A stretch of DNA of 64,000 nt from Escherichia coli (GTDB lineage Bacteria; Pseudomonadota; Gammaproteobacteria; Enterobacterales; Enterobacteriaceae), in NCBI RefSeq assembly GCF_003334255.1, contig NZ_QOWU01000008.1; one strand, given 5' to 3'. Position 1 is the stretch's first letter. Each line of letters begins with the position of its first letter. The notes under the pieces were generated by a model. It was not told where the DNA came from. It did not search any database and saw only the letters and a list, made by a program, of their open reading frames with translations. Position numbers and translations under genes: made by a program. Positions 4,056-51,185 of the stretch are shown piece by piece.

Positions 4056-5360
4056 ATGAAAACCCGTACACAACAAATTGAAGAATTACAGAAAGAGTGG
4101 ACTCAACCGCGTTGGGAAGGCATTACTCGCCCATACAGTGCGGAAGATGTGGTGAAATTACGCGGTTCAGTCAATCCTGAATGCACGCTGGCGCAACTGG
4201 GCGCAGCGAAAATGTGGCGTCTGCTGCACGGTGAGTCGAAAAAAGGCTACATCAACAGCCTCGGCGCACTGACTGGCGGTCAGGCGCTGCAACAGGCGAA
4301 AGCGGGTATTGAAGCAGTCTATCTGTCGGGATGGCAGGTAGCGGCGGACGCTAACCTGGCGGCCAGCATGTATCCGGATCAGTCGCTCTATCCGGCAAAC
4401 TCGGTGCCAGCTGTGGTGGAGCGGATCAACAACACCTTCCGTCGTGCCGATCAGATCCAATGGTCCGCGGGCATTGAGCCGGGCGATCCGCGCTATGTCG
4501 ATTACTTCCTGCCGATCGTTGCCGATGCGGAAGCCGGTTTTGGCGGTGTCCTGAATGCCTTTGAACTGATGAAAGCGATGATTGAAGCCGGTGCAGCGGC
4601 AGTTCACTTCGAAGATCAGCTGGCGTCAGTGAAGAAATGCGGTCACATGGGCGGCAAAGTTTTAGTGCCAACTCAGGAAGCTATTCAGAAACTGGTCGCG
4701 GCGCGTCTGGCAGCTGACGTGACGGGCGTTCCAACCCTGCTGGTTGCCCGTACCGATGCTGATGCGGCGGATCTGATCACCTCCGATTGCGACCCGTATG
4801 ACAGCGAATTTATTACCGGCGAGCGTACCAGTGAAGGCTTCTTCCGTACTCATGCGGGCATTGAGCAAGCGATCAGCCGTGGCCTGGCGTATGCGCCATA
4901 TGCTGACCTGGTCTGGTGTGAAACCTCCACGCCGGATCTGGAACTGGCGCGTCGCTTTGCACAAGCTATCCACGCGAAATATCCGGGCAAACTGCTGGCT
5001 TATAACTGCTCGCCGTCGTTCAACTGGCAGAAAAACCTCGACGACAAAACTATTGCCAGCTTCCAGCAGCAGCTGTCGGATATGGGCTACAAGTTCCAGT
5101 TCATCACCCTGGCAGGTATCCACAGCATGTGGTTCAACATGTTTGACCTGGCAAACGCCTATGCCCAGGGCGAGGGTATGAAGCACTACGTTGAGAAAGT
5201 GCAGCAGCCGGAATTTGCCGCCGCGAAAGATGGCTATACCTTCGTATCTCACCAGCAGGAAGTGGGTACAGGTTACTTCGATAAAGTGACGACTATTATT
5301 CAGGGCGGCACGTCTTCAGTCACCGCGCTGACCGGCTCCACTGAAGAATCGCAGTTCTAA
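4056..5360 (+). CDS. aceA: Isocitrate lyase
   Basis: ORF 4041-5360 trimmed to ATG at 4056 ([22 protein letters not shown]...), 434 aa; recognised as AceA; 14 bp downstream of aceB stop. Confidence 0.95.
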
Positions 5361-5380: not shown

Positions 5381-5618
5381 CTGTAGGCCGGATAAGGCGT
5401 TCACGCCGCATCCGGCAATCGGTGCACGATGCCTGATGCGACGCTTGCGCGTCTTATCATGCCTACAGCCGTTGCCGAACGTAGGCCGGATAAGGCATTT
5501 ACGCCGCATCCGGCAATCGGTGCACGATGCCTGATGCGACGCTTGCGCGTCTTATCATGCCTACAACCGTTGCCGAACGTAGGCTGGATAAGGCGTTTAC
5601 GCCGCATCCGGCAATTCT
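5381..5618. repeat. REP/BIME array: about 2.4 tandem copies of a 98-bp unit built from REP palindromes
   Basis: TAGGCCGGATAAGGCG..CGCCGCATCCGGCA recurs at 5384, 5482 and 5580; classic REP consensus in the aceA-aceK spacer. Confidence 0.85.
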
Positions 5619-36367: not shown

Positions 36368-36401
<34 letters not shown>

Positions 36402-48622: not shown

Positions 48623-49660
48623 ATGCACGGTAATTCTGAAATGCAAAAAATCAACCAAACCAGCGCAATGCCTGAAAAAACTGACGTTCACTGGAGTGGT
48701 CGGTTTAGCGTTGCACCAATGCTCGACTGGACGGACAGACATTGCCGCTATTTCTTGCGTCTGCTTTCCCGCAATACGTTGCTGTATACCGAAATGGTGA
48801 CCACAGGGGCGATTATTCACGGTAAAGGTGATTATCTGGCGTACAGTGAAGAAGAACATCCGGTAGCGTTGCAACTGGGCGGTAGCGATCCGGCGGCGCT
48901 GGCGCAGTGTGCAAAGCTGGCAGAAGCGCGCGGATATGATGAGATCAACCTGAATGTCGGCTGCCCGTCTGACCGGGTGCAGAACGGCATGTTTGGTGCG
49001 TGTCTGATGGGTAATGCGCAGCTGGTTGCCGACTGCGTGAAAGCGATGCGCGATGTGGTGTCGATTCCGGTGACGGTGAAAACGCGTATTGGCATCGACG
49101 ACCAGGACAGCTATGAATTTCTCTGCGATTTCATCAATACCGTTTCCGGCAAAGGCGAGTGTGAGATGTTCATCATCCACGCACGTAAAGCCTGGCTTTC
49201 GGGGTTAAGCCCGAAAGAAAACCGTGAAATCCCGCCGCTCGATTATCCGCGTGTGTATCAACTGAAGCGTGACTTTCCGCATCTGACAATGTCGATTAAC
49301 GGTGGTATCAAGTCGCTGGAAGAGGCCAAAGCACACCTGCAACATATGGATGGCGTGATGGTCGGGCGCGAGGCGTATCAGAATCCGGGTATTCTGGCGG
49401 CGGTAGACCGGGAGATCTTTGGTTCCTCGGATACCGATGCCGATCCGGTGGCGGTAGTGCGCGCCATGTATCCGTACATTGAGCGTGAACTCAGCCAGGG
49501 GACGTATCTCGGCCATATTACCCGGCATATGTTGGGCTTGTTCCAGGGTATTCCTGGCGCGCGGCAGTGGCGGCGTTATTTAAGTGAAAATGCCCATAAA
49601 GCGGGTGCAGACATTAATGTGCTGGAACACGCGCTCAAACTGGTGGCGGATAAGCGTTAA
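48623..49660 (+). CDS. dusA: tRNA-dihydrouridine synthase A
   Basis: ORF 48617-49660; ATG at 48623 gives 345 aa, alternative ATG at 48668 ([23 protein letters not shown]) gives 330 aa; Dus TIM-barrel motifs present. Confidence 0.9.
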
Positions 49661-49742
49661 CTTTTCACCAAAAAGTAGTCAAATTCACCACGCCCTGCGC
49701 ACCGTCGCGGGGCGTTTTGCTGTTAAATCAATAGATTATTTT

Positions 49743-49759
49743 TGGCATGATTCTTGTAA
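49743..49759 (+). promoter_or_regulatory. Putative sigma54 (-24/-12) promoter of pspG
   Basis: TGGCAT-N5-TTGT about 35 bp upstream of the pspG ATG resembles TGGCAC-N5-TTGC; pspG is known to be PspF/sigma54-dependent. Confidence 0.5.
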
Positions 49760-49793
49760 TGCCAGCAAGAGATTTCATATTTGGGAGAGCATC

Positions 49794-50036
49794 ATGCTGG
49801 AACTACTTTTTGTGATTGGCTTTTTTGTCATGCTGATGGTCACCGGCGTTTCGTTGCTGGGCATTATCGCCGCGCTGGTTGTGGCGACGGCCATTATGTT
49901 CCTCGGCGGTATGCTGGCATTGATGATTAAGTTGCTGCCGTGGTTACTACTGGCGATTGCGGTGGTGTGGGTTATTAAGGCGATTAAAGCACCAAAAGTG
50001 CCGAAATATCAGCGTTATGACCGCTGGCGTTACTAA
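49794..50036 (+). CDS. pspG: Phage-shock protein G (small inner-membrane protein)
   Basis: ORF 49584-50036 trimmed to ATG at 49794 (MLELLFVIGFFVMLMVTGVSLLGIIAALVV), 80 aa, two hydrophobic helices. Confidence 0.85.
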   Translation: MLELLFVIGFFVMLMVTGVSLLGIIAALVVATAIMFLGGMLALMIKLLPWLLLAIAVVWVIKAIKAPKVPKYQRYDRWRY

Positions 50037-50172
50037 GGGATTGTGCGGATGATCACAACCTAAGGTTTTATCCTTAGAACAAAATAGGAATTGATAATCA
50101 AATCTGTCACTATTGCGCCTCTAACAGATTCATCGTGCTGTACCCTACATACAGCCGAACTATAAAAAGAAA

Positions 50173-50200
50173 GGGCTTCCCAGGTGGAAGCCCTATTTCT
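50173..50200. terminator. Bidirectional hairpin terminator between pspG (+) and qor (-)
   Basis: Stem GGGCTTCC / GGAAGCCC flanked by A-run upstream and T-run downstream. Confidence 0.7.
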
Positions 50201-50201
50201 T

Positions 50202-51185
50202 TTATGGAATCAGCAGGCTGGAACCTTGCGTCGCCCGGCTTTCCAGAATCTCATGCGCACGCTGCGCATCCTTCAGCGGATATTTCTGCTGCTCGGCGAC
50301 ATCGACCTTAATCACACCGCTGGCAATCAAAGAGAACAGTTCATTACTGGCCTCGGTTAATTCCTCCCGCGTGGTGATATAGCCTTGCAGGGAAGGGCGT
50401 GTCACATACAACGAGCCTTTTTGATTGAGAATGCCTAAGTTCACACCGGTAACCGCACCTGATGAGTTGCCAAAACTGACCATTAAGCCGCGGCGTTGCA
50501 GGCAATCCAGCGACCGTTCCCAGGTGTCTCTGCCCACGGAATCGTACACCACGCGCACTTTCTTACCGCCGGTGATCTCTTTTAACCGCTCGACCAGATC
50601 CTCTTCACGATAGTTAATAACCTGCCACGCGCCCGCTTTTAGCGCGCTTTGCGCTTTTTGCGCGGTTCCTACGGTGCCGATAAGTTTCGCGCCCAGGGCT
50701 TTTGCCCACTGGCAGGCAATTAAGCCAACGCCGCCAGCCGCTGCGTGGAACAGGAACTGTTCATCGGGTTTAATTTCATAGGTTTTGCGCAGCAGATAAT
50801 AAACCGTTAAGCCTTTCAGGAAGGATGCCGCAGCTTGCTCAAAAGAAATTGCCGCAGGCAGAATCGCCGCTTTATCCGCAATAATGTTATGCACAGAGCT
50901 GTAAGCGCCTAACGCCGACTGCGCATAGACTACACGATCGCCTGCCTTAATATGCTTTACACCACTGCCGACTTTACTCACGATGCCTGCTGCTTCGGTG
51001 CCTAATCCGCTGGGTAGCGATGGCGGCGGGTAAAGGCCGCTGCGGATATATGTGTCGATAAAATTGATGCCGATGGCTTTATTTTCGACCTGGATTTCAT
51101 TCTCCGCCGGATCGGCAGGAGTGAACTCTACGGCTTGAAGTACTTCCGGGCCACCGTGCTTGTGAAATTCAATTCGTGTTGCCAT
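50202..51185 (-). CDS. qor: NADPH:quinone oxidoreductase
   Basis: ORF 50202-51293 trimmed to ATG at 51185 (MATRIEFHKHGGPEVLQAVEF), 327 aa; MDR-family fold. Confidence 0.9.
   Translation of the reverse strand: MATRIEFHKHGGPEVLQAVEFTPADPAENEIQVENKAIGINFIDTYIRSGLYPPPSLPSGLGTEAAGIVSKVGSGVKHIKAGDRVVYAQSALGAYSSVHNIIADKAAILPAAISFEQAAASFLKGLTVYYLLRKTYEIKPDEQFLFHAAAGGVGLIACQWAKALGAKLIGTVGTAQKAQSALKAGAWQVINYREEDLVERLKEITGGKKVRVVYDSVGRDTWERSLDCLQRRGLMVSFGNSSGAVTGVNLGILNQKGSLYVTRPSLQGYITTREELTEASNELFSLIASGVIKVDVAEQQKYPLKDAQRAHEILESRATQGSSLLIP

Follow-up and report, generated by a model that had tools for sequence, protein, structure and literature searches.

The element TGGCAT-N5-TTGT that precedes pspG in the stretch of Escherichia coli DNA analyzed here (64,000 nucleotides, referred to below as the window) is, with a probability that we put at around 0.97, the sigma54 (RpoN) promoter of the monocistronic pspG gene, the second transcription unit of the E. 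coli PspF regulon. pspG takes part in the envelope-stress response known as phage shock, and its promoter serves as a standard model template in studies of enhancer-dependent transcription. The promoter (PpspG) was reportedly described by Lloyd et al. in 2004 (J Biol Chem 279:55707); it is textbook knowledge and we have nothing new to claim for it. The sequence elements, their order, spacing and conservation, and the identity of the gene follow from the present analysis, while the binding of sigma54, the binding of PspF and the induction are taken from the literature.

The window derives from the E. coli chromosome and carries the gene run dusA-pspG-qorA-dnaB. Over 49500-50250 the sequence shows 100% identity to E. 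coli K-12 MG1655, and this region was matched in all 5426 of the 5426 complete E. coli genomes in the collection searched. The annotation in these genomes is uniform (5426/5426), reading dusA, pspG ('envelope stress response protein PspG') and qorA. In MG1655 the annotated order is zur, a frameshifted DUF2713 gene, dusA, pspG, qorA (on the opposite strand), dnaB and alr. The DUF2713 ORFs, yjbL/yjbM (window 47275-48260), are given as two genes in NC_000913.3 and as one frameshifted pseudogene in another MG1655 record. Compared over 50 kb, the whole window is 99.9% identical to MG1655, with 24 mismatches and two indels, and it thus stems from a close relative and not from MG1655 itself. The indels lie at 5465-5517 and 36369-36400; relative to MG1655 the window has around 98 bp extra near aceA/aceK and is without around 91 bp near lamB/malM, and both may be REP-type intergenic elements. 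The initial annotation had located pspG far from the main psp operon, in agreement with the coordinates of NC_000913.3, where pspA starts at 1,368,079 and pspG at 4,262,840.

The features that are relevant to the argument are the following:
48623-49660, plus strand: dusA (tRNA dihydrouridine synthase A), the upstream gene, whose stop codon lies 4 nt ahead of the enhancer region
49664-49670, plus strand: extra PspF-type half-site TTCACCA, 20 bp upstream of its counterpart within the full enhancer
49676-49690, plus strand: probable PspF upstream activating sequence (UAS, enhancer) TAGTCAAATTCACCA, an imperfect 15-bp palindrome with its center around 86 nt before the predicted start
49690-49719, plus strand: dusA intrinsic terminator with a 10-bp G+C-rich stem and a 6-nt loop (49690-49715) ahead of a T run, separating the enhancer from the IHF site
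49726-49738, plus strand: IHF site AATCAATAGATTA, which fits the consensus WATCAANNNNTTR perfectly and lies 18 bp before the GG
49742-49758, plus strand: sigma54 promoter TTGGCATGATTCTTGTA (17-mer), with the -24 GG at 49744-45 and the -12 GT at 49756-57
49769, plus strand: predicted transcription start, which would give a 25-nt leader
49783-49789, plus strand: Shine-Dalgarno sequence GGGAGAG, a conserved block just upstream of the ATG
49794-50036, plus strand: pspG coding sequence for 80 aa, of which residues 1-62 are hydrophobic, with a basic C-terminal tail
50172-50194, found on both strands: bidirectional terminator hairpin between the convergent pspG and qorA

The promoter region reads ttttTGGCATgattcTTGTaatgcc (in a second excerpt, attatttttGGcatgattcttGTaatgcc). 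The initial annotation had described the element as having the -24/-12 spacing of a sigma54 promoter, with the GG intact and the GC replaced by GT, and this description is exact at 49743-49757: TGGCAT occupies 49743-49748, the spacer GATTC 49749-49753 and TTGT 49754-49757. Compared with the sigma54 consensus TGGCAC-N5-TTGCW, the sequence TGGCAT-N5-TTGTA has the exact spacing and the GG, and the C of the GC is changed to T; GG and GT stand in the canonical GG-N10-GC register, 12 nt from one another. From the end of the motif to the pspG ATG (49794) there are 36 nt. The start at 49769 was placed by the convention of the published ChIP-seq study, 19 bp beyond the center of the motif, which gives the 'distance 25' to pspG. 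The leader RNA showed no significant fold (z = 0.67).

The published data connect to precisely this element. TTGGCATGATTCTTGTA is the sigma54 ChIP-seq site OS40 of Bonocora et al. 2015 (PMC4591121), assigned to pspG with a fold-above-threshold of 15, with a predicted start 25 nt before the gene and flagged in EcoCyc as 'confirmed' experimentally; it is the sole high-stringency ChIP-seq site in the coordinate range of the window (PMC4591121). The locus is therefore the same as that of E. coli PpspG/OS40 and, considering the identity of 49500-50250 to MG1655 and of the 17-mer to the published motif, there is no difference between the two. In addition, reconstituted RpoN holoenzyme was found to bind the dusA>pspG spacer in vitro by gSELEX (PMC8743547), and the orthologous pspG promoter of Salmonella, TGGCATGATTTTTGTAAG, was 39-fold enriched in ChIP-chip; in Salmonella with a promiscuous activator the pspG transcript went up only 1.4-fold (PMC3844500). 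The enhancer dependence and phage-shock regulation that had been proposed from the sequence are likewise borne out by the literature. It is reported that PspF binds the UASs of pspA and pspG, with two UASs at the former and one at the latter, and that induction is around 20-fold for pspG and around 100-fold for pspA (PMC3709507). Overexpression of sigma54 raises pspG (log2 2.96), which the authors of that experiment attribute to PspF. Papers that cite Lloyd et al. 2004 state that transcription of pspG requires rpoN and an enhancer-binding ATPase. Moreover, deletion of the pspG promoter alters the dynamics of PspF and the basal expression of pspA (PMC3709507), and the pspG promoter serves in vitro as a sigma54 template activated by PspF1-275.

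A scan for PspF and IHF sites upstream of the promoter, as suggested in the initial annotation, gave a probable PspF site and a match to the IHF consensus. The 15-mer TAGTCAAATTCACCA (49676-49690) has 2 mismatches to TRRTGWAATTCGCYA, a pattern that was made solely from the two UAS 15-mers of pspA. The latter were taken from the pspF-pspA intergenic region of MG1655, which contains two imperfect 15-bp palindromes 20 bp apart, TGATGAAATTCGCCA and TAGTGTAATTCGCTA (positions 1413-1427 and 1433-1447 of the extracted region). The pspG enhancer equals the second of these, TAGTGTAATTCGCTA, at 11 of 15 positions. The upstream TTCACCA (49664-49670) may act as a PspF half-site, and the same 20-bp spacing occurs at pspA, between TTCGCCA and TTCGCTA (1421 and 1441 of the MG1655 pspF-pspA region). 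One full 15-mer plus a half-site at pspG fits the published count of two UASs at pspA and one at pspG. The likeness between the two enhancers is modest: 17 of 27 positions agree in register and the ungapped score is equalled by around 3% of shuffles. Because the enhancer is palindromic, it was matched best in reverse orientation (20/28); the best ungapped forward match between the pspA and pspG upstream regions is GGCATGTTGCTGTTGATTC / GGCGTTTTGCTGTTAAATC (15/19), which is not the enhancer. The IHF site has its counterpart at pspA in AATCAAAAAGATA, 19 bp before the pspA GG and conserved in five genera, and the assistance of IHF to PspF is documented at pspA. The bases that PspF and IHF would contact at pspG, as well as the exact start site, are predictions that derive from the sequence.

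Between the enhancer and the IHF site lies the intrinsic terminator of dusA, with the sequence ACGCCCTGCG-CACCGT-CGCGGGGCGT followed by a T run, and dusA transcripts thus cross the enhancer before terminating. Terminator and enhancer have one base in common (49690). In the alignment of 49 species (A1), 96.1% of the cells at the stem positions are paired and 8 of the 10 pairs show compensatory changes; the observed pairing was reached by 0 of 500 shuffles and no slid register came close. The hairpin downstream of pspG (50172-50194) has a 9-bp stem with T runs on either side and resembles a bidirectional terminator of pspG/qorA. An Rfam scan of 49500-50300 yielded sub-threshold matches only, namely ctRNA_p42d at the pspG/qorA terminator, with 21 bits against a threshold of 50.

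To specify the conservation of this arrangement, a species-representative genome collection was scanned once with the PspG protein, which gave 80 loci that include Escherichia, Citrobacter, Salmonella, Enterobacter, Klebsiella, Raoultella, Kluyvera, Leclercia, Yersinia, Rahnella, Biostraticola and Brenneria. The gene context is highly conserved, with dusA upstream on the same strand in 79 of the 80, and 78 of the 80 have qorA downstream on the other strand. We found that in 79 of the 80 species the best match to a position weight matrix (PWM) of sigma54 sites within the 300 nt before pspG was the homologous element TGGCA[CT]G-N4-TTG. In 72 species 34-46 nt separate the end of the motif from the ATG, and in a few the leader is longer. 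The one exception is Citrobacter werkmanii NBRC 105721, in which a single change, TTGTCAT for TTGGCAT, breaks the -24 GG (TTGTCATGTTTCTTGTA). The altered element lies around 35-52 nt before pspG and the remaining cassette is intact; the change may be due to a sequencing error or may truly weaken the promoter.

A column-wise footprint and the 49-species alignment A1 resolve the upstream region into discrete conserved blocks with variable sequence between them, the flanking spacer and leader positions being variable as well. From upstream to downstream the blocks are TTCAC[CT]A ... T.GTCAAATTCACCA (window 49664-49690), both arms of the hairpin (49690-49715, with a variable loop), TCAA....TTA (49728-49738), TGGCA.G....TTGTAA and the Shine-Dalgarno sequence GGGAGAG. 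The UAS 15-mer holds invariant columns in A1. At the IHF site the columns of TCAA and TTA are at least 90% conserved; the strict IHF consensus is found in 33 of 79 species, and the column-wise footprint is the better evidence. In 72 of 79 species the UAS is centered 61-62 bp ahead of the GG; in Yersinia and Rahnella this distance is 83 bp. This difference corresponds to about two helical turns, and the face of the helix that the enhancer presents to the promoter is therefore preserved.

Some leaders deviate in length. In Salmonella enterica subsp. arizonae and diarizonae and in Yersinia vastinensis, the pspG leader exceeds that of E. coli in length. Both Salmonella subspecies have 68-69 nt between motif and ATG, including a G+C-rich palindrome (CCCGGTAAGCGC...GCCGGG) that we take to be REP-like. 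In Y. vastinensis this stretch measures 190 nt, ends in ...CAGCTTGAAGTATGGTGGGG and presumably resembles an ERIC/IRU element.

The conservation is important, considering that the motif alone could be a chance match without promoter function, with pspG being expressed in another way. Matches to the loose pattern TGGCAY-N5-TTGY number 3 in the window, where 1.03 are expected, and at least 3 matches were seen in 7 of 100 shuffles. For the PWM scan that the initial annotation had proposed, the matrix was made from the 134 other high-stringency E. coli sigma54 ChIP-seq sites of Bonocora et al. 2015 (PMC4591121), with pspG left out. The pspG site ranked 1 among all positions on both strands, with 14.93 bits, above 64% of the real sites, but around 1.1 sites with at least this score are expected per 64 kb on both strands under a first-order Markov model, and the -12 C is missing. 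The accompanying motifs behave similarly, as the UAS pattern derived from pspA has 3 sites with at most 2 mismatches against 1.76 expected, and the IHF consensus 9 matches against 2.79 expected. Taken one by one, the three motifs are no rarer than expected by chance in 64 kb. The weight thus comes not from the sigma54 motif alone, which is not beyond chance, but from its position and orientation, the adjoining conserved UAS and IHF sites, and the retention of the element in front of pspG, amid variable flanks, in 79 of 80 species. A rough multiplication of per-base densities suggests that all three elements would fall within a span of 100 bp, correctly ordered and oriented, directly before a ribosome binding site and a gene in roughly 5 in a million windows. 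Together with the published ChIP-seq and gSELEX site, this leaves a chance match with a probability in the order of a percent; conservation and ChIP data refute it for practical purposes. It is slightly less far-fetched, though still very improbable, that sigma54 binds the site unproductively, as at many intragenic sites, and that transcription of pspG comes mostly from dusA read-through or from an unrecognized sigma70 promoter. Many sigma54 ChIP sites are indeed not productive promoters (PMC4591121), and dusA lies immediately upstream on the same strand, at a distance of 133 nt. However, read-through into pspG is disfavored by the strong covarying terminator that separates dusA from the promoter, a scan of the plus strand from 49400 to 50300 gave no sigma70-like match, and pspG responds to the level of sigma54 and to PspF according to the literature cited above.

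The motif could also be coding sequence, if the real gene were the 150-aa ORF at 49584-50036, for which an open frame with a GTG start exists. The initial annotation had regarded this entry of the ORF list as an upstream extension through the promoter, and we found that it indeed runs in frame through the dusA stop, the terminator and the promoter, overlapping the 3' end of dusA in another frame. The indels in the upstream alignment are not multiples of three, and the conservation there is patchy and motif-like. The Shine-Dalgarno sequence precedes the ATG at 49794, and the 79 orthologs tested at the homologous start codon all begin with M-[LFR]-E-[LI] (the 80th, locus L051, was examined from residue 8). 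The short product scores 90.1 bits against the equivalog TIGR02975 (PspG; Pfam Phageshock_PspG), well above the cut-off of 53.7, with residues 2-64 aligned to positions 1-63 of the 64 of the model, so that the family begins at residue 2 of the 80-aa protein. The assignment of this ORF to pspG that had been made from the letters is thereby corroborated, in line with the RefSeq annotation. The 150-aa ORF was rejected as an artefactual extension, and the chance that it is the real gene is practically negligible.

The membrane topology of PspG is less clear-cut. The protein is uniformly hydrophobic from residue 1 to around 62 and has a basic tail. AlphaFold predicted helices at 2-16 and 21-65 when 30 homologs were supplied, and a single helix (2-65) when run without an alignment. 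The literature contains an in-silico prediction of two membrane helices that leaves both termini cytoplasmic; the hydropathy and the two AlphaFold runs are compatible with either two or three spans, and the earlier designation as a 'two-helix' protein is plausible as a model.

Elsewhere in the window, other sequences resemble the sigma54 consensus. A near-perfect motif, CTGGCACATGACTTGCC (43224-43240, minus strand, 13.98 bits), is located inside plsB near the 5' end in the sense orientation, and coincides with a low-stringency sigma54 ChIP-seq peak (4254270) in the supplementary file of Bonocora et al. 2015 (PMC4591121). The second-best PWM score of the window (14.31 bits) belongs to CTGGCACCGAGTTTGCC, antisense inside aceA (4394-4410, minus strand). 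This site is absent from the high-stringency ChIP tables, and 'aceA' was not found in the supplements of Bonocora et al. 2015 that were searched.

The nearest relative of the pspG promoter is that of pspABCDE, the other PspF-dependent sigma54 promoter of E. coli. The two have in common the -24/-12 elements including a -12 GT (TTGGCACGCAAATTGTA at pspA, with the GT at 1526-1527 of the extracted MG1655 region), an IHF-type site 18-19 bp before the GG, and enhancer 15-mers of the type T-R-R-T-S-W-A-A-T-T-C-R-C-Y-A. They differ in that pspA has two full enhancer 15-mers 20 bp apart, which also repress the divergent pspF, whereas pspG has one full 15-mer plus a half-site, situated 13 bp closer to the promoter, and holds the dusA terminator within the loop. 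More generally, the arrangement is that of the IHF-assisted enhancer-dependent sigma54 promoters like glnAp2, nifH and hycA/hypA, with GG-N10-GC, an activator site around 80-130 bp upstream and an IHF bend in between; the difference from such generic sigma54 promoters is the GT at -12 of pspG.

This deviation at -12 is rare in E. coli and common among the promoters that answer to PspF. GC is present at -12 in 125 of the 134 tabulated ChIP sites and a T in only 3 of these 134, namely pspA, ygeW and a site antisense near dcuD. Among the 80 pspG promoters the dinucleotide is GT in 74, GA in 4, GG in 1 and the consensus GC in only 1. The pspA promoters were checked in five genera, and that of Salmonella from the literature: TTGTATT is present in E. 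coli, Klebsiella, Pluralibacter, Leclercia and Cronobacter, and likewise in Salmonella (PMC3844500). The PspA homolog search returned only Enterobacteriaceae among the matches listed (at least 120). That the -12/-24 elements are common to pspA and pspG has already been remarked upon in the literature. The -12 C is reported to be 96% conserved among sigma54 promoters and important to restrain basal transcription (PMC4551910), and because of this role the T that is conserved in both PspF promoters may be functional.

Combined with the published work, the arrangement suggests the following as the most likely course of events. RNA polymerase-sigma54 would bind the -24 GG and -12 GT (49742-49758) and form a closed complex that is unable to open unaided. 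The AAA+ enhancer-binding protein PspF would occupy the palindrome around 86 bp upstream (49676-49690), perhaps with the aid of the half-site at 49664-49670, and IHF at 49726-49738 would bend the DNA such that PspF contacts the polymerase. Hydrolysis of ATP by PspF would then open the promoter, with transcription from near 49769. As long as the inner membrane is unstressed, PspF would be kept inactive by PspA, and membrane stress (secretins, loss of the proton-motive force) would free it, such that pspG is induced along with pspABCDE. The dusA terminator, located in the loop between enhancer and promoter, would shield pspG from dusA transcription.

On the present comparative data it seems rather doubtful that the -12 T and the terminator inside the loop represent selected design features and not drift. 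Speculatively, the T might serve to keep basal expression deliberately leaky or to give a particular response to PspF, and the placement of the terminator could couple the transcription of dusA to the occupancy by PspF. The case of pspG makes clear that a real sigma54 promoter can be recognized from the raw sequence despite a non-consensus -12 element. The part that is marginally new is comparative: the cassette of enhancer, terminator, IHF site and promoter, including the -12 T, is conserved across the Enterobacterales, with the enhancer in helical phase.
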